22,587 nucleotides of DNA, from the IMG/VR virus record IMGVR_UViG_2547132415_000022, positions 1 to 22,587 of that record, one strand, 5' to 3'. The translations under genes and the position numbers were made by a program. This document shows positions 10,203-18,697 of the stretch, piece after piece. Numbering within the stretch: the stretch's first letter is position 1; each line of letters starts with the position of its first letter. Source of the stretch: a virus (Duplodnaviria; Heunggongvirae; Uroviricota; Caudoviricetes). The notes under the pieces were generated by a model. That model made no database searches. It was given only the letters and a program-made list of their open reading frames with translations, and was not told the DNA's origin.

Positions 10203-10375
10203 TGTCAGGAGTCCTGAATAGTGATTAGAGGAGTCACATGTCGGCATCAGTTTCCCGACGATGCGCATCCTCCGCCATCAGTCCCGGATGGCTTATCACT
10301 GACACAACAGCACCTTAGCGAATCGCGGGGCGCGACTCAGTAGCCTTGCCGTGTATTCATCACGGCGAGGTATTC
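10203..10375. promoter_or_regulatory. Divergent late-promoter region between O (leftward) and P (rightward)
   Basis: 173 bp intergenic region between divergently transcribed late operons, where P2 has its Ogr-dependent late promoters. Contains the perfect palindrome TCAGGAGTCCTGA at 10205-10217. I found no perfect TGT-N12-ACA Ogr site by eye, so the exact promoter elements are not assigned. Confidence 0.5.
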
Positions 10376-12148
10376 ATGACCATCACCACAGACACCACTC
10401 TTTTACACGACCCGCGTCGTCAGGCGGCGCTGCTGTACTGGCAGGGATTTTCCGTGCCGCAGATTGCCGCCATGTTGCAGATGAAACGCCCGACGGTGCA
10501 GAGCTGGAAACAGCGCGACGGCTGGGACAGCGTTGCCCCCATCAGCCGTGTCGAAATGAGTCTGGAAGCGCGGCTGACCCAGCTCATCATCAAACCGCAG
10601 AAAACCGGCGGTGATTTCAAGGAAATTGACCTGCTGGGACGCCAGATTGAACGACTGGCACGGGTAAACCGCTACAGCCAGACCGGCAACGAGGCAGACC
10701 TTAATCCGAACGTCGCTAACCGCAACAAAGGCGGGCGGCGCAAACCGAAAAAGAATTTTTTCAGTGACGAGGCCATCGAAAAGCTGGAGCAGATTTTCTT
10801 TGAGCAGTCTTTCGACTATCAGTTGCACTGGTATCGTGCCGGGCTTGAGCACCGCATCCGCGATATCCTGAAATCCCGCCAGATTGGCGCGACGTTTTAT
10901 TTTTCCCGCGAGGCGCTGCTGCGCGCCCTGAAAACCGGCCATAACCAGATTTTTCTGTCGGCCAGTAAAACGCAGGCGTATGTGTTCCGTGAATACATCA
11001 TCGCCTTTGCCCGTCTGGTTGACGTTGACCTGACCGGTGACCCGATTGTCCTGGGCAATAACGGCGCAAAACTGATTTTTCTCGGCACCAACTCCAACAC
11101 CGCACAGAGCCATAACGGCGACCTGTACGTCGACGAGATTTTCTGGATCCCGAATTTTCAGGTACTGCGTAAGGTGGCATCAGGTATGGCCTCACAGAGT
11201 CACCTGCGCTCGACCTATTTCTCCACCCCGTCCACGCTGGCGCACGACGCCTACCCGTTCTGGTCGGGTGAACTGTTCAACCGGGGACGCGCCAGCGCCG
11301 CCGAACGTGTGGAAATCGACGTCAGTCATAACGCCCTTGCCGGTGGTCTTCTCTGTGCGGACGGCCAGTGGCGGCAGATTGTCACCATTGAGGACGCCCT
11401 GAAAGGCGGCTGCACATTGTTCGACATTGAGCAGCTCAAACGCGAAAACAGCGCCGACGATTTTAAAAACCTGTTCATGTGTGAATTTGTTGACGACAAG
11501 GCATCGGTGTTCCCGTTCGAGGAGCTGCAACGCTGCATGGTCGACACGCTGGAAGAATGGGAAGACTACGCGCCGTTTGCCGCCAATCCGTTCGGCTCCC
11601 GCCCGGTATGGATTGGTTACGACCCGTCACACCGTGGCGACAGCGCCGGATGCGTGGTGCTGGCACCGCCGGTGGTGCCCGGTGGCAAATTTAGAATACT
11701 TGAGCGTCACCAGTGGAAAGGCATGGACTTTGCCACCCAGGCGGAGTCCATCCGCAAACTCACCGAAAAATACAACGTCGAATACATCGGTATTGATGCC
11801 ACCGGCCTCGGTGTCGGCGTGTTCCAGCTCGTGCGCTCGTTCTATCCCGCCGCGCGCGATATCCGCTACACGCCGGAAATGAAAACCGCAATGGTGCTCA
11901 AGGCCAAAGACGTCATCCGCCGTGGCTGTCTGGAATATGACGTCAGCGCCACCGACATCACCAGCTCGTTCATGGCTATCCGCAAGACCATGACCAGCAG
12001 CGGACGCAGCGCCACCTATGAGGCCAGCCGCAGCGAGGAAGCCAGCCACGCCGACCTCGCCTGGGCAACCATGCACGCCCTGTTAAATGAGCCACTCACC
12101 GCCGGTATCAGCACTCCGCTGACATCCACCATTCTGGAGTTTTACTGA
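10376..12148 (+). CDS. P: Terminase large (ATPase) subunit P
   Basis: ORF-track frame starts at 10346; the probable start is the ATG at 10376 (MTITTDTTLLHDPRRQ) with a GAGGT RBS, giving 590 aa as in P2 gpP. Its stop overlaps the Q start (TGATG). Confidence 0.9.
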   Translation: MTITTDTTLLHDPRRQAALLYWQGFSVPQIAAMLQMKRPTVQSWKQRDGWDSVAPISRVEMSLEARLTQLIIKPQKTGGDFKEIDLLGRQIERLARVNRYSQTGNEADLNPNVANRNKGGRRKPKKNFFSDEAIEKLEQIFFEQSFDYQLHWYRAGLEHRIRDILKSRQIGATFYFSREALLRALKTGHNQIFLSASKTQAYVFREYIIAFARLVDVDLTGDPIVLGNNGAKLIFLGTNSNTAQSHNGDLYVDEIFWIPNFQVLRKVASGMASQSHLRSTYFSTPSTLAHDAYPFWSGELFNRGRASAAERVEIDVSHNALAGGLLCADGQWRQIVTIEDALKGGCTLFDIEQLKRENSADDFKNLFMCEFVDDKASVFPFEELQRCMVDTLEEWEDYAPFAANPFGSRPVWIGYDPSHRGDSAGCVVLAPPVVPGGKFRILERHQWKGMDFATQAESIRKLTEKYNVEYIGIDATGLGVGVFQLVRSFYPAARDIRYTPEMKTAMVLKAKDVIRRGCLEYDVSATDITSSFMAIRKTMTSSGRSATYEASRSEEASHADLAWATMHALLNEPLTAGISTPLTSTILEFY

Positions 12149-13182
12149 TGAGCAAGAAAATAGGGAAAACACCGCGACCTGCGGCAAAAACAATCACCGC
12201 CAGCGCCCCGAAAATGGAAGCATTCACCTTTGGTGAGCCGGTGCCGGTACTTGACCGCCGTGACATTCTGGATTACGTCGAGTGCATCAGTAACGGCAGA
12301 TGGTATGAGCCGCCGGTCAGCTTTACCGGTCTGGCAAAAAGCCTGCGTGCTGCCGTGCATCACAGCTCACCGATTTACGTCAAACGTAATATTCTGGCTT
12401 CAACGTTTATCCCGCACCCGTGGCTTTCCCAGCAGGATTTCAGCCGCTTTGTGCTGGATTTTCTGGTTTTCGGTAATGCGTTTCTGGAAAAGCGTTACAG
12501 CACCACCGGTAAGGTCATCAGACTGGAAACCTCACCGGCAAAATATACCCGCCGTGGCGTGGAGGAGGATGTTTACTGGTGGGTGCCGTCCTTCAACGAG
12601 CCGACAGCCTTCGCGCCCGGCTCCGTGTTTCACCTGCTGGAGCCGGATATCAATCAGGAGCTGTACGGCCTGCCGGAATATCTCAGCGCCCTTAACTCTG
12701 CCTGGCTGAATGAGTCGGCCACGCTGTTCCGCCGCAAGTATTACGAAAACGGCGCTCATGCCGGATACATCATGTATGTCACCGATGCCGTGCAGGATCG
12801 CAACGATATCGAAATGCTTCGCGAAAACATGGTCAAGTCGAAAGGCCGCAACAACTTTAAAAATCTGTTTCTTTATGCCCCGCAGGGGAAAGCCGACGGC
12901 ATTAAAATTATCCCGCTCAGTGAAGTGGCAACGAAGGACGATTTTTTTAATATCAAAAAAGCCAGCGCCGCTGACCTGCTGGACGCGCACCGCATCCCCT
13001 TTCAGTTGATGGGCGGCAAGCCGGAGAACGTCGGGTCGCTGGGTGATATTGAGAAAGTGGCAAAGGTCTTTGTCCGCAATGAGCTTATCCCGCTACAGGA
13101 CAGGATCCGCGAGATAAACGGCTGGCTCGGTCAGGAGGTCATCCGCTTTAAAAACTACTCACTGGACACTGACAACGGCTGA
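12148..13182 (+). CDS. Q: Portal protein Q
   Basis: 344 aa ORF, same length as P2 gpQ as I recall it; last gene before cos, as in P2. Confidence 0.9.
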   Translation: MSKKIGKTPRPAAKTITASAPKMEAFTFGEPVPVLDRRDILDYVECISNGRWYEPPVSFTGLAKSLRAAVHHSSPIYVKRNILASTFIPHPWLSQQDFSRFVLDFLVFGNAFLEKRYSTTGKVIRLETSPAKYTRRGVEEDVYWWVPSFNEPTAFAPGSVFHLLEPDINQELYGLPEYLSALNSAWLNESATLFRRKYYENGAHAGYIMYVTDAVQDRNDIEMLRENMVKSKGRNNFKNLFLYAPQGKADGIKIIPLSEVATKDDFFNIKKASAADLLDAHRIPFQLMGGKPENVGSLGDIEKVAKVFVRNELIPLQDRIREINGWLGQEVIRFKNYSLDTDNG

Positions 13183-13187
13183 ACATC

Positions 13188-13209
13188 GCCGCCTGCGGGC
13201 GGCTTTTTT
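13188..13209 (+). terminator. Rho-independent terminator downstream of Q
   Basis: GCCGCC-TGCG-GGCGGC stem-loop followed by TTTTTT, starting 6 nt after the Q stop codon. Confidence 0.6.
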
Positions 13210-13338
13210 ACACCCTCACATGCTCACCACCGCACAAAACCCCCCGCAGACACACCAACGCCCCGGCGCACAACCCAAACGCCGTCACGACGCGCTGAGA
13301 CGCTGAAAAAATAAAATCAGCACCACCGCCAGCGCGCA

Positions 13339-13357
13339 GTGCTTTCCCCGCCTCGCC
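13339..13357 (-). other. cos site, 19-nt cohesive-end sequence
   Basis: gtgctttccccgcctcgcc is the reverse complement of GGCGAGGCGGGGAAAGCAC, which I recall as the P2 cohesive end; the adjacent ~60 bp toward Q also match my recollection of the P2 left end in reverse complement. Confidence 0.7.
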
Positions 13358-13687
13358 CGCCCGCTTCATGGGGCGGTTTTGATGCAATACATGAGCATCG
13401 TAATGCCATATCGTGACAGGATTATAGAACATGAAGGTATACTAACTTACACATGCAAAAAAACGCACACTCAGGCATTCTCTTTGGAATACAATATGGT
13501 AAAAATATGATCATTTGAAGCTGCATATCCGTGCAGATTGAAATCAATGATGCTGCCCCTTCGTTAAGACAGCCAGGCCGCAATCTCTTGAGCTCAAGTG
13601 GACATCTAAGACAGAAAAACAATTTAAAGGCAAAGTTTTCGTAATGGTATCTTTGTCACAGCACACGCTAAAAAGGAACTAAACCTC

Positions 13688-14752
13688 ATGAGCACTCAGC
13701 AAGTCCTCAACATCCCTACAGCCGTATCGCAAGCGACCATCGAAAAATGGTTGAAAGGACTGGAACAGACAACGGAATTAGCCTTTTTTCGCCGTGTTGG
13801 CGGGCGGCATGGCTTCAATGTTACGAGCCGCTGGGCAAGTACATTGGATAACTTGAATAAAACTCTGAATGACCCATCGAAGCAAGGTACGCCTGCAAAC
13901 TTTTCAAATCTCCGTTTGATTACGTTAAAAATAATCACTAGCGTAAACCATTATTATTCAATTGATGGTATTAAATCAGGAACCATTAATTTAATACCAA
14001 ATATAATCAACTACCCTCACCTCGATAAAACATTTAGCTCAGTATTTCCAATAAAACTTGATGATAATACAGGACTTCCTTCGACTCCTGGGCATTTCAT
14101 TACTTCCATCGAAAAAATGGGGGATGGTATTGCTGTAATATATTCCTATATTATTTTAAGAAAAATCCAAGGAAGGAGTAAGCTACGTAGCAATCAATAT
14201 CCAGAGCAGTACTTCAACACTGTTTTCATCCCTAATGATTTAAGCCGTATAGAATATCGGGTTGATAAATCACTAGGTAAAAGAGCGTCTGAAAAAGCGA
14301 TGGCAGATTTGCGCGCAAAATTTAATGAATTACTCGTGGAACTTAATATTAAGTTAGCTGTTGAAACTATAAATTTCTACAAAGCAATTTCCAATATTTA
14401 CCTTGACAAACAATATGGAAGACTTGTTCAGGTTAATTTCCTTGATCCAAATGGAGATGAGGATGCTGTTCTTCGTTGCAGAACAGACCCCAATTATGAT
14501 GCCCGTTATCGCGAGGTTGTATCTAAAACTCAGAACGGAACACCTCGCTCATTGACCCTTGAAGTTTCTGGCGTTGCAGTGCGATTAGATAGTAAAGTTG
14601 CAAACGAAACAATTTCAAATGAAATTGGTTTTGAACCCAGCAAAACTGATTGGTCTACAAACAAATTTTGTGGGGATTTTTATTTTACACAAACAGCAGA
14701 TCATCAGGTGCATTATGGGGTGATAAATGATTTACTCACAAGAGCGAAATAA
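13688..14752 (+). CDS. Hypothetical protein, 354 aa; first gene of an AT-rich cargo cassette; no recognisable catalytic motif
   Basis: ATG at 13688 with an AGGAA RBS 9 nt upstream; strongly AT-rich (roughly mid-30s percent GC by eye) against a >50 percent GC backbone; not a P2 gene; no Walker A or other motif found on inspection. Confidence 0.7.
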   Translation: MSTQQVLNIPTAVSQATIEKWLKGLEQTTELAFFRRVGGRHGFNVTSRWASTLDNLNKTLNDPSKQGTPANFSNLRLITLKIITSVNHYYSIDGIKSGTINLIPNIINYPHLDKTFSSVFPIKLDDNTGLPSTPGHFITSIEKMGDGIAVIYSYIILRKIQGRSKLRSNQYPEQYFNTVFIPNDLSRIEYRVDKSLGKRASEKAMADLRAKFNELLVELNIKLAVETINFYKAISNIYLDKQYGRLVQVNFLDPNGDEDAVLRCRTDPNYDARYREVVSKTQNGTPRSLTLEVSGVAVRLDSKVANETISNEIGFEPSKTDWSTNKFCGDFYFTQTADHQVHYGVINDLLTRAK

Positions 14753-15161
14753 AAAAATGCGCTCATTAGTGTATAAACAAAGAGTACTCCTGGAGAATGC
14801 CGGAAGCTCTTCTGTTTTCATAAATAATGATTCTCACATATATTATACAAATTTACTAGAATATGTAGAGGGTGATCTTGATCGTAATATTTATACAATC
14901 CCAGTATTACGAAAAGCCATAAAAACTGACAATTATGAACATTTGCTACGAGTTGTTCAATTTTTTAGTAGCAATACCTCCTGTTTATTTAACGTTAAAT
15001 ATTGCTACGAACTAGAAAACATGGAGTTTGAGGACATACAAGCTGATGAATATACCAACTATATATTAAACGGAGTTGAACCTGTAACTGCCAATGGTTC
15101 TGAAATTGAAGACTTCAATCCAAAATATCTTTCATTTTATTGCATAATAAACCTGGATTGA
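14727..15161 (+). CDS. Hypothetical small acidic protein, 144 aa (134 aa if it starts at the ATG at 14757); second cargo gene
   Basis: Overlaps the 3' end of the first cargo gene by 26 nt, suggesting translational coupling; same AT-rich composition; no recognisable motif. Confidence 0.6.
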   Translation: MIYSQERNKKMRSLVYKQRVLLENAGSSSVFINNDSHIYYTNLLEYVEGDLDRNIYTIPVLRKAIKTDNYEHLLRVVQFFSSNTSCLFNVKYCYELENMEFEDIQADEYTNYILNGVEPVTANGSEIEDFNPKYLSFYCIINLD

Positions 15162-15166
15162 CTGTC

Positions 15167-16027
15167 ATGAACAAACAACAAATCACATGTGAGTTAGGCA
15201 AAAGGGTTCATTTTGAAGATGAAGCGAGTTTTATTGAAACATTATACTCGGATATAGAAGTCATAATAAAACTAATGGAGCAATCTAGTGACAAGTATTA
15301 TTGTGATGATGAAGATAAACTAAGCCATACAATTGTAGCCTCTCTTGTACACCTAGGTTACGATGCAACCGAACAAACAAAAAAAAATGGAAGTGTGGAC
15401 ATAACCGTTCGTCCGAAAAATGGAGGATATACATGGATTGCTGAAGCAAAAATCGGATACGGGAACCAAAAAATATTCGAGGGGCTACTTCAGTTGCTTA
15501 CTCGCTATGTTAAAAGAGATAATCATGCAGGCATGGTTATCTATTATCAAAAATCAAAGTCATCTTATCATTTCAAACAATGGCTGAAATACATATACAA
15601 CCATGAGTGGAAGGATTATTGTACAAAGAAAGGGTCATTAAAAAAAGCGACTCCGCTACTTTCTCATTTAAAAAGTACGGTTTGTCCGAAAGTCAAACAA
15701 GGCTGTTGTTATGCTGACATTGATGTCATCCAACCTTCGACTGATGGTCTAAAACTTCGCTGCTTCTATATTGACGTGCATCATGACCCAATTGACAGTA
15801 GTGGTTTAAAGAATAAGTCAATCGCCTTTGGTCAAGCCCAAAATAGAATTAGAGATTTATATCACTTATGGAAGACAGGACAGTTCGACGGCAGTATGAT
15901 AGATGAATTATTTGAAGAAATAAAAATATATCATAGCAATGAACTTGACGAAGAATATGAAGATGAAGATGAAGATGAAGATGAAGATGAAGATGAAGAT
16001 GAAGATTCGAATATAAACTCAAAATGA
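15167..16027 (+). CDS. Hypothetical protein with a PD-(D/E)xK nuclease-like motif and a poly-acidic C-terminal tail; third cargo gene (ORF track starts it at a TTG at 15140)
   Basis: ATG at 15167 lies 5 nt after the stop of cargo gene 2. Protein contains GSVDITVRPKNGGYTWIAEAKIG, a D-x15-E-x-K pattern in a strand-like context resembling the restriction-endonuclease fold active site. C-terminus is EEYEDEDEDEDEDEDEDEDSNINSK. Confidence 0.65.
   Translation: MNKQQITCELGKRVHFEDEASFIETLYSDIEVIIKLMEQSSDKYYCDDEDKLSHTIVASLVHLGYDATEQTKKNGSVDITVRPKNGGYTWIAEAKIGYGNQKIFEGLLQLLTRYVKRDNHAGMVIYYQKSKSSYHFKQWLKYIYNHEWKDYCTKKGSLKKATPLLSHLKSTVCPKVKQGCCYADIDVIQPSTDGLKLRCFYIDVHHDPIDSSGLKNKSIAFGQAQNRIRDLYHLWKTGQFDGSMIDELFEEIKIYHSNELDEEYEDEDEDEDEDEDEDEDSNINSK
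15959..16006 (+). repeat. Perfect hexanucleotide microsatellite (GAAGAT)x8 inside cargo gene 3, encoding a poly-Glu-Asp tail
   Basis: Eight uninterrupted GAAGAT copies read directly from the sequence; in-frame. Confidence 0.95.
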
Positions 16028-16040
16028 ACACCAAGAATCA

Positions 16041-16074
16041 CCCCATTAAGTTTAGACATCCTAACTTGATGGGG
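16041..16074 (+). terminator. Hairpin downstream of cargo gene 3, possible terminator between the convergent cargo operon and gene A
   Basis: CCCCATTAAGTT / AACTTGATGGGG, a 12-bp stem with one G-U mismatch and a 10-nt loop, starting 14 nt after the stop; no strong U-tract follows, so terminator function is uncertain. Confidence 0.3.
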
Positions 16075-16161: not shown

Positions 16162-18432
16162 TTAATTAGGAAAAACACTCCCAGTTGGAATTTTTTTAAA
16201 TTTATATTTCCTCCCATCGAAACATACTGTCGCACCGCGTGCTAATACCTGTGGTTCCCATTGATTCGGCGTAATACCCTCCTGAGCCAACTCGAATCTT
16301 ATACGTGGCGTCTGTTCCCGTTCAGCTTTTGTCATTCGTCCTGAGGGCGCTATCTGATAAGGTTTTAATGGCTCACAGCTCTTTTGCTGGCGATTTGGTC
16401 GTGGCGCATCGTGTTTTAGTGCGCATCTGAGCACCGTCACGACTTCAGGGTCATCCCAGCCGATAACCCCGCGCTCAATCAGATTCAACACCGCTGCTGC
16501 TTGCTCAGAAGGTATGGATGTCATAGCAGGATCGCCACCGCTAGTTAGCTTTCCACAGTTATTGACAGGACTCCGAGGCGCGGCGATGCCGCTTTTTAAA
16601 GTCAAAGGCTCAACGACCGGAACTTTCGGCACAATGCGCCAGTCCGTCGTTCTGGTGATATGAATATGACGCGCGCCGAGATGCGGCGCGTAAATGCCGA
16701 CCACCCTCTCGACCTCTTCCTCGTACTCGTTAACGTCATCCGACGGGCTACGGGCGACTCTGACAGTCTGACAATCGCGCGGGACATTTGCCCCACCCTG
16801 CGCGCTGATATACAACGCAAAATCACCACTGTCTGCGGCGGCGCGTGCAGCCTCGACGCGCTCGTCAAACTCATCAGCAATGCTGACGCCGCGCGGCAAT
16901 TTGCGTAGTTCACGGTAAGCCCCCATTGTCGGCAGACCAACCGTTTTAAATTGCGGGATGCGCCACGTTGACGCCCATGCGGTAACAGCCGCAGCAGTGT
17001 CTTTCAGCGGCCTGCCGGTATCGTTATCGAGCTGACCATCCAGTGCATAGCCGTCGATGTTTTTTGAGATGTATTTCGCGATATACCCCGCAGCACCGCC
17101 CCGGTTAAGGTGTTTTGCCTGAAAACGGTTTCGCGCGGCTCCTCTTTCATCGCCATCCTCTTTGAGCGCATAGCGACGCATGATTTCGATAATCTGGTTA
17201 CGCTGGCGCGGATTACAAAAAAGCATCATATGCCAGTGCGGCGTTCCGTCGTGGTGTGGCTCGACGACACGCAAACCGTAGACCTGTAAATCATTATCCT
17301 TGAATGCCGTGCGCATCAGGCTCCAGATACGGCAGAGATAACGCTGCGCATCCTTTGGATTAAATGCCTCATCGTTCCAGCCGTGATTTAGCTGGACGGT
17401 TTTACTTTCGCCTTTTCTGACCTGACGTGTCGGGTGATACTTTGACGGCGCGGTCAGCGTGATAAACATCCCCACATCACCCTCTGCTGCGGCGTAACGC
17501 TCAATACCGGCAATGGTGTTCATCAGCTCCATCCGGCGAATTTCAGGATTAGAAATACTGCCCATCACCTTACTGATAAGGTCGATGCGCTCGCCGGTTT
17601 CCCTGTTTTCGAGATCACACGATTTAAGAAATTCCAGATTTGCCTGGCGGCGTGCACGCACATCACGAATGGCATGTTTACTGGCATAAGGAGAACGGTC
17701 TTTATTGACCTCCCCGACAGCAATCAGTAACGCCTCATGCCAGCGCATACGCTGGCCTTTAAGCTGATGGGTCCACCACTCATCGTTAAACAGACGGGCA
17801 ATGGCAGAATATGCCTGCCTCGTGGTCATCTGCCCTTTACGGTATTTTTTCCAGTAGAGCGGGGAAATATTGAAAGCACGTGCAGCACCAGCAACATGAC
17901 CATAGAGGTGAGCCTGCGCCTCATCCGTAAACAGCGATTCTTTTTCGCCATGCGCATCCCCCCAGGCATCGCAGAGTTCCTCATACATCATGAAAAGCTG
18001 CGATGAGATACGGGCGGCAAACTTTTTCAGCTCCTTGTCATTCATCCCCGGCAGACGCGCATAATGGTCACGCTCTGCCAGAAACAGCAACGACGCGTCG
18101 GTGTTCATTTTATGGCGCTGATTCACACGCTCAATGCGCGGCCATAAACGACGCTGAAAAGTGGATGTGAGAAAATAAAACCCGTGCACCGGGCTTTTAT
18201 TGCGCCGGATGTAGTCATAGCGTGACGTAAACAGCGAGCGCAAAAAGTAAGGCAGGCGGTTAATCGTGGATAAAACACCTTGCACCTGACGCATCTCGTC
18301 ACGTGTAAGGGGTCTTTCGCGCCCGACAGCCTCGCGTGGCGCGTTCCATGCATAAGCACCGGTAAACGCCTTACCGGTGCCTGCGGCAAATGCTGACGGA
18401 GGGACAAAACGCCCGGAGGCTTTAACGGCCAT
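16162..18432 (-). CDS. A: Replication initiation endonuclease A (rolling-circle initiator)
   Basis: ORF-track frame 16162..18474 (TTG start); probable start is the ATG at 18430-18432 (MAVKASGRFVPPSAFAAGTGK), as I recall for P2 gpA. Contains the HUH-like PHWHMMLF and the paired-tyrosine YIAKYISK motifs expected of this nicking enzyme. Confidence 0.9.
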   Translation of the reverse strand: MAVKASGRFVPPSAFAAGTGKAFTGAYAWNAPREAVGRERPLTRDEMRQVQGVLSTINRLPYFLRSLFTSRYDYIRRNKSPVHGFYFLTSTFQRRLWPRIERVNQRHKMNTDASLLFLAERDHYARLPGMNDKELKKFAARISSQLFMMYEELCDAWGDAHGEKESLFTDEAQAHLYGHVAGAARAFNISPLYWKKYRKGQMTTRQAYSAIARLFNDEWWTHQLKGQRMRWHEALLIAVGEVNKDRSPYASKHAIRDVRARRQANLEFLKSCDLENRETGERIDLISKVMGSISNPEIRRMELMNTIAGIERYAAAEGDVGMFITLTAPSKYHPTRQVRKGESKTVQLNHGWNDEAFNPKDAQRYLCRIWSLMRTAFKDNDLQVYGLRVVEPHHDGTPHWHMMLFCNPRQRNQIIEIMRRYALKEDGDERGAARNRFQAKHLNRGGAAGYIAKYISKNIDGYALDGQLDNDTGRPLKDTAAAVTAWASTWRIPQFKTVGLPTMGAYRELRKLPRGVSIADEFDERVEAARAAADSGDFALYISAQGGANVPRDCQTVRVARSPSDDVNEYEEEVERVVGIYAPHLGARHIHITRTTDWRIVPKVPVVEPLTLKSGIAAPRSPVNNCGKLTSGGDPAMTSIPSEQAAAVLNLIERGVIGWDDPEVVTVLRCALKHDAPRPNRQQKSCEPLKPYQIAPSGRMTKAEREQTPRIRFELAQEGITPNQWEPQVLARGATVCFDGRKYKFKKIPTGSVFPN

Positions 18433-18697
18433 ATGAGCCAAAAGCCTCTGAACAACGCTTGCTGAGTTGCTCAACCTGCACGTTTAAATCAGCAAAAGAC
18501 TTTGCGCTTCCGGTCAGAATATCGTGATGCATCAGGCCGGAAACGAGCTGGCTTAATTTCGGGTAATAACCAACCACCGACAGCCATTCCTGACCGGCGT
18601 TTTTACCGCTTTCCGCTCTCTTTTTCTCGTGGAGAATAAACTGAAAGCTGTCACTGGTAACGACATAACGTTCGCCAATTTCAATACGAATACTCAT
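18422..18697 (-). CDS. Small early-operon protein, P2 orf83-like
   Basis: 91 aa ORF immediately upstream of A, overlapping its start by 11 nt; occupies the orf83 position of the P2 early operon. Confidence 0.6.
   Translation of the reverse strand: MSIRIEIGERYVVTSDSFQFILHEKKRAESGKNAGQEWLSVVGYYPKLSQLVSGLMHHDILTGSAKSFADLNVQVEQLSKRCSEAFGSYGR

Follow-up and report, generated by a model that had tools for sequence, protein, structure and literature searches.

The hotspot of P2 was defined by Rousset et al. (2022; PMC9122126) as the cos-proximal interval between gpA and gpQ, occupied in P2 by old and tin, and by the count of these authors about one third of the cloned hotspot systems were active. 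The same work describes Rst_3HP ('hp + hp + hp', pFR109), a set of three genes without recognised domains that lies in this hotspot and protects against P1 (Rousset et al., 2022; PMC9122126). The three-gene cassette analysed here has its niche in common with Rst_3HP and with old/tin of P2, namely the gpA-gpQ hotspot adjoining cos. Identity with Rst_3HP was rejected in a comparison with pFR109 protein 1, the one pFR109 protein compared in full, which is unrelated to the products of gene 1 and gene 3 (BLASTP E 0.15; hhalign probability 0.2-0.3%). The cassette itself, with the same accessions and sequences, is entry 145 ('DUF5939 | DpnII-MboI', shown with the number 14) of Table S5B in Rousset et al. 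(2022; PMC9122126), where the label is HHpred-based and agrees with the reading of gene 3 as a nuclease; it is absent from the systems cloned in that study. As these proteins are listed in Table S5 of Rousset et al. (2022), neither the locus nor its nuclease-like annotation is new. The supplements of Vassallo et al. (2022) lack the proteins, and a literature search found no paper with the cassette accession numbers, PDC-S54 or DUF5939, and no paper linking RdgC to anti-phage defence. What is new here is the conserved active-site constellation, the partner with a predicted RdgC fold, a three-gene order that is strictly kept in distant bacteria and in phages of unrelated types, the fusions to STAND proteins, and the recognition that the acidic tail of gene 3 is a polymorphic repeat and not a conserved feature.

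On the side of protein structure, the best neighbours of the gene 3 model are the type II restriction enzymes BamHI, BglII, BstYI and OkrAI, yet identity to them is 9-11% and there is no sequence-level match. Gene 3 differs from these enzymes by a PxDxSG motif, a helical extension, an acidic tail and two unrelated conserved partners. A type II restriction-modification system was rejected for the cassette because no methyltransferase gene was found in the cassettes examined. Compared with Hachiman HamA, the nuclease domain of CBASS Cap4, McrC, CdiA-CT (EC869) and CinB, the gene 3 cassette lacks a HamB helicase, a SAVED domain and McrB. The PADLOC models of Hachiman, CBASS and similar systems with PD-(D/E)xK effectors gave no match, nor did any validated PADLOC system. 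The sole PADLOC match of gene 3 was the candidate PDC-S54 (residues 13-147 against profile positions 230-369 of 410; E 2.8e-7, 28 bits), a model that is also matched by a STAND fusion relative. PDC-S54 is a single larger protein and not a three-gene cassette, and the match covers the nuclease core, about one third of the profile, so that it falls short of a full-length match.

The window, i.e., the whole stretch of 22,587 nucleotides that was analysed, is a P2-like (Peduovirus) prophage with the following features around the cassette:

10346-12148, plus strand (rightward): terminase gene
12148..13182, plus strand: portal gene of P2 type (gpQ), which bounds the hotspot on the left (open reading frame; the corresponding gene is a 'phage portal protein' in RefSeq for ZH177 and A23 and matches Pfam Phage_portal in Enterobacter)
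13339..13357, minus strand: GGCGAGGCGGGGAAAGCAC, which we take to be the P2 cos cohesive-end sequence (single exact match, 0 expected in shuffles)
13484..13511, plus strand: candidate sigma-70 promoter 5' of gene 1 (weak consensus match only, 9/12)
13688..14752, plus strand: cassette gene 1, basic protein of 354 residues with a predicted RdgC-like/TBP-like fold
14727..15161, plus strand: cassette gene 2, acidic protein of 144 residues with no recognisable family (26-nt overlap with gene 1)
15167..16027, plus strand: cassette gene 3, protein of 286 residues, predicted PD-(D/E)xK-fold nuclease with a helical C-terminal extension and an acidic tail
16162..18474, minus strand: P2-type replication endonuclease gene gpA, right border of the hotspot (open reading frame; RefSeq 'replication endonuclease'; Pfam Phage_GPA in the equivalent locus)

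The three genes lie between gpQ and gpA, next to cos, and vary among related prophages, as is typical of hotspot cargo; in the sequences that Rousset et al. give in Table S2, the cohesive-end sequence likewise adjoins the hotspots. The GC content of the three-gene block is 32-41%, as against 52-59% in the flanks that belong to the phage backbone. The P2 flank at about 13200-13390, which includes cos and makes up the first 190 or so bases of the query, is common to more than 2000 E. coli genomes and is the only part of the query shared by thousands of P2-like prophages, whereas the cargo was found in two of 5426 complete E. coli genomes, ZH177 (100% identity) and A23 (99.1%). The earlier note on this DNA had treated gene 3 as cargo and as a possible effector, and this framing is supported by its location in the P2 hotspot, with gpQ on one side and gpA on the other; as a sign of a defence role, the position is only suggestive. 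The spacer between the portal gene and gene 1 (13183-13687, 500 bp) contains cos, the weak promoter match and two terminator-like hairpins at 13188-13203 and 13357-13376. A scan of the window against Rfam found no RNA family.

The ZH177 prophage carries identical cargo, yet its baseplate V, terminase and gpA genes and one regulator are annotated as truncated pseudogenes. Set against its degraded regions (L001 4395-4949 and 8962-10159), the terminase and gpA reading frames of the window (10346-12148 and 16162-18474) have their full length. In ZH177 the cargo has thus survived the decay of its phage, and the window represents a different, more intact copy.

Gene 3 begins with an ATG, identical to the start of RefSeq WP_004016846, and its product can be divided as follows:

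15311..15547, plus strand: predicted nuclease core, residues 49-127 (secondary structure of the model and invariant columns)
15389..15457, plus strand: motif segment GSVDITVRPKNGGYTWIAEAKIG, residues 75-97, read from the sequence and containing D78, E93 and K95 (G75, V77, D78, W90, E93, A94 and K95 invariant)
15788..15802, plus strand: second invariant motif, P208-x-D210-x-S212 (PIDSS; family consensus PxDKSG)
15944..16024, plus strand: acidic disordered tail, residues 260-286 (pLDDT about 50; 19 D/E of 27)
15953..16006, plus strand: (GAAGAT)n tandem repeat encoding (ED)n (TRF, 9 copies; length-polymorphic between strains)

The nuclease signature that had been read from the letters alone, an Asp followed after 15 residues by Glu-Ala-Lys, is present as D78, E93 and K95; the figure holds in the sense that E93 stands at position 15 after D78, whereas the residues lying between the two number 14. 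The bare pattern D-x(8-30)-[DE]-x-K is uninformative, occurring no more than expected by chance, with seven instances in the gene 3 protein and at least one in 95% of shuffled sequences. D78, E93 and K95 were singled out from the other instances because of their conservation and their place in the modelled structure. In an alignment of 38 homologues that are 24-83% identical to the gene 3 protein, the invariant residues are F22, E38, E49, G64, G75, V77, D78, W90, E93, A94, K95, E105, G106, Q109, R113, Y114, Y126, P208, D210 and S212. A profile search of 1.84 billion representative proteins recovered 691 relatives at E <= 1e-3, and among 145 of the best of these, mutually <=50% identical, E49, G75, D78, E93, K95, Q109, R113 and Y114 are kept in 144. 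The PxDKSG motif occurs in 146 of 201 relatives, where it marks the end of the short-form proteins, and might contribute a further element to the active site or serve as an interface with a partner; in gene 3 it lies, as PIDSS, outside the canonical nuclease core.

An AlphaFold2 model of the gene 3 protein (m97a81270b18a), built on the family alignment, reached a pLDDT of 85 and a pTM of 0.80. Its elements (alpha49-62, beta66-71, beta77-82, beta90-96, alpha100-114, beta120-127) form the alpha-beta-beta-beta-alpha-beta core of the PD-(D/E)xK superfamily, with the Asp on beta2, the (D/E)-x-K on beta3 and an acidic residue on the preceding helix. E49 is located on alpha1, D78 at the start of beta2 (77-82), E93-A-K95 on beta3 (90-96), and E105, Q109, R113 and Y114 on alpha2, so that the strands which the earlier note had expected around the motif residues are found in a confident model. 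The best structural neighbours score modestly (BamHI 7.8, BstYI 7.4, OkrAI 7.3, CinB nuclease 6.8, BglII 6.5) and are followed by SwaI, the CdiA-CT DNase toxin, Hachiman HamA, McrC, EcoT38I, AspBHI, BglI and EcoRI. The structure prediction and fold search proposed in that note gave a PD-(D/E)xK core and BamHI-type neighbours on the one hand, and on the other a Foldseek search against the PDB in which no match was significant (best E 8e-3, acetyl-CoA carboxylase; nucleases only at E 0.08-0.3). Sequence searches of gene 3 against solved structures, as a single sequence or as a profile, gave no true match; the acidic regions of WASP, which did appear, were discarded as a low-complexity match of the acidic tail only. 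Pfam and NCBIfam had nothing above threshold for the products of genes 1, 2 and 3, and below threshold the 38 members matched PDDEXK_9 in nine cases (best E 0.013) and Mrr_cat in two. In PHROGs only families of uncharacterised function were matched (phrog_9664 for gene 3, phrog_12777 for gene 1).

The assignment of gene 3 to the PD-(D/E)xK nuclease fold is supported by the catalytic constellation, conserved in 38 of 38 homologues and 144 of 145 distant representatives, and by the canonical core of the model. We regard it as well supported but not proven, because the neighbour scores are modest, Foldseek was null and no curated sequence family reached threshold. In the model, the predicted active site would comprise E49, D78 and E93-x-K95, with Q109, R113 and Y114 of the next helix in support. 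We infer that gene 3 is an active nuclease and that DNA is its substrate.

The gene 1 protein is basic (pI 9.06) and the gene 2 protein acidic (pI 4.74). The predicted structure of gene 1 resembles E. coli RdgC in fold only, identity being 9% with no match to the Pfam RdgC family. Sequence searches of genes 1 and 2 against solved structures returned nothing, and no recognisable fold or family was found for gene 2. Synteny was examined at 22 loci from elsewhere with DNA upstream of the gene 3 homologue, drawn from E. coli, Enterobacter, Serratia, Rahnella, Rouxiella, Citrobacter, Aeromonas, Shewanella, Enterovibrio, Photobacterium, Pseudoalteromonas, Methylobacterium, Vibrio and an Stx1a-converting phage. 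At all 22, genes of the size of gene 1 and gene 2 precede gene 3 in unchanged order, usually overlapping or tightly packed, and HMM searches confirmed gene 2 at 22 of the loci and gene 1 at 21. Genes 1 and 2 have orthologues in Pseudoalteromonas, Photobacterium and E. coli that can be aligned with one another. For the first gene of the Stx1a phage, homology to gene 1 was not shown (hhalign E 0.013, probability 3%) and only position and size agree. Short-form relatives keep the gene sizes, as seen in Methylobacterium and at the P0105 locus (363, 141 and 213 residues). Since the order is kept at 22 of 22 loci and at the short-form P0105 locus, the three-gene cassette seems to be the general context of free-standing family members. 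In the Enterobacter P2-like hotspot (L018/L019, 8995-9666), two extra small genes of 102 and 119 residues without Pfam matches lie between the cassette and gpA; they are absent from the window.

The mobile settings of the cassette are diverse. It occupies the P2 hotspot in E. coli and Enterobacter, the integrase-proximal ends of lambdoid prophages and an integrase island, and one copy adjoins a type I hsdR gene outside prophages. In the Stx1a-converting phage Stx1_499 (L023, 2493-4600), a short-form cassette of 350, 130 and 221 residues lies between Q and stx1A, on the strand opposite to both the antiterminator gene and stx1A, and seven Stx1a phage records carry the cassette. This position between Q and stx1A could couple cassette expression to prophage induction in pathogenic E. 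coli. In the Vibrio phage 10N.247.311.62_PE001 (L024, 1351-3626), the cassette stands beside the integrase of a 14.8-kb PM2-like temperate element of the Vinavirales. The Vinavirales belong to the Varidnaviria, another viral realm than that of P2 and lambda. Moreover, the gene 3 nuclease domain forms the C-terminus of STAND proteins of 700-1200 residues with NACHT/NB-ARC and HEAT repeats (P0102, P0108, P0115, P0128, P0131, P0165, P0200 and P0103), where it follows the repeats. To our knowledge, a C-terminal, post-repeat effector is an unusual placement in bacterial NLR-like proteins.

We propose, with a probability of roughly 0.6, that gene 3 encodes a metal-dependent PD-(D/E)xK nuclease which is the effector of a three-gene, prophage-borne cassette, most likely anti-phage, and that the acidic tail stands outside the conserved mechanism. 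The cassette would thus most likely be an as yet uncharacterised nuclease-effector anti-phage system. The roles given here to genes 1 and 2 are conjecture. Gene 1, with its predicted RdgC fold and basic charge, would probably bind DNA, and the products of the tightly packed or overlapping genes would presumably be co-translated into a complex. Gene 1, to which gene 2 would serve as adaptor or inhibitor, might recognise a phage protein or else phage DNA that is invading or replicating; such recognition would license gene 3 to cut DNA, and the lysogen would be protected against other phages. The (ED)n tail would at most tune activity, e.g., by electrostatic self-inhibition or by binding the basic gene 1 protein.

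An addiction or toxin-antitoxin-like module would likewise have a gene for a small acidic protein directly 5' of the nuclease gene, tightly packed or overlapping, and would likewise always move as a unit on mobile elements; gene 3 would then be the toxin and the acidic gene 2 and/or gene 1 the antidote, the module would stabilise the prophage and not sense phages, although the two roles can overlap, as they do in toxin-antitoxin systems that act by abortive infection. This seems quite unlikely to us, as the conserved genes are three and not two, it is hard to see where a 350-residue RdgC-fold protein would belong in a simple pair, the PADLOC and Pfam searches revealed no antitoxin or HTH domain, and the fusion of the nuclease domain to STAND sensors is what one would expect of an immune effector that is triggered. 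RdgC binds DNA and is associated with recombination, and a cassette whose first gene has an RdgC fold and which is found in phage genomes of several kinds might instead serve the DNA metabolism of its carrier, in recombination or in processing or degradation of host DNA. However, the cassette occupies accessory (moron) positions and not replication or recombination modules, it differs in GC content from the backbone of the phage, it is rare in E. coli although the flanking P2 sequence is common there, and one copy lies outside prophages beside a type I restriction-modification gene, which together make this explanation highly improbable. The most improbable reading is that gene 3 has a restriction endonuclease fold without being a DNase, acting as an RNase or as a non-catalytic binding module. 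PD-(D/E)xK folds do include RNases and inactive members, and Foldseek gave no significant match, but catalysis is favoured by the acidic residues and the lysine, which are kept in 144 of 145 representatives, and the closest structural neighbours are DNA endonucleases.

The remaining alternative concerns the tail, in which the earlier note had seen a possible DNA mimic or autoinhibitor. The run of alternating Glu and Asp on which this was founded is real: the protein ends in LDEEY(ED)8SNINSK, with 19 D/E among the last 27 residues, and the pI is 5.1 for the whole protein as against a near-neutral 7.6 for the core without the tail. The tail might therefore be pictured as occupying the DNA-binding surface of the nuclease itself, or that of the basic gene 1 protein, until infection releases it. 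Every E. coli allele retains at least (ED)4, and C-terminal charge is non-random family-wide: in 69 of 70 cases the short-form relatives (about 210 residues), which end about 11 residues past PxDKSG, have a basic tail, and the long forms have about 50 extra helical residues and a net charge of <=-3 over the last 20 residues in 40 of 76. However, public E. coli alleles that are otherwise identical carry (ED)4, (ED)5, (ED)6 or (ED)8, the short ones being commonest, and the A23 allele has three GAAGAT units fewer, a variation generated through a slippage-prone hexanucleotide repeat. The tail of the window is the longest and most acidic in the family. Among the 38 homologues of the same clade, 23 have <=8 residues after the last helix, 16 tails are net-acidic and 6 are basic; no tail sequence is conserved, and in the model the tail takes no fixed position. 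Because it is polymorphic in length and short, absent or basic in most homologues, the tail is not part of the conserved machinery but a lineage-specific, disordered, slippage-generated appendage, and as a family feature the DNA mimic or autoinhibitor is not supported. That the tail acts as a built-in inhibitor in the present protein we consider unlikely. On compositional grounds the C-terminal charge of the family may nevertheless matter, and a modulatory role is possible because long forms tend to be acidic and short forms basic at the C-terminus.

If the anti-phage nuclease cassette preferred here is a working defence system, it would represent a new three-component architecture for nuclease-based phage immunity and the first immune role for an RdgC-fold protein. 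As the family comprises 691 representative clusters (E <= 1e-3), matches nothing in Pfam above threshold and recurs in STAND/NLR-like proteins, naming and characterising it would annotate many genes at once. A wider proposal, which we hold tentatively and at rather less than even odds, is that of a widespread unnamed three-gene system across P2-like, lambdoid/Stx1a and Vinavirales phages and defence islands, in which DNA would be sensed by an RdgC-like clamp and the nuclease thereby licensed, with a small adaptor, in which the nuclease module would have been recruited as the C-terminal effector of NACHT-HEAT STAND proteins, and in which C-terminal charge (basic in short forms, acidic in long ones) would set autoinhibition. 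The natural allelic series from (ED)4 to (ED)8 already provides the variants needed to ask whether nuclease activity is tuned by a disordered acidic tail. The same repeat gives rise to antisense reading frames at 15931-16059 and 15849-16034 (both on the minus strand), which would encode poly-Ser and poly-(HL) and are by-products of the GAAGAT repeat, not genes.
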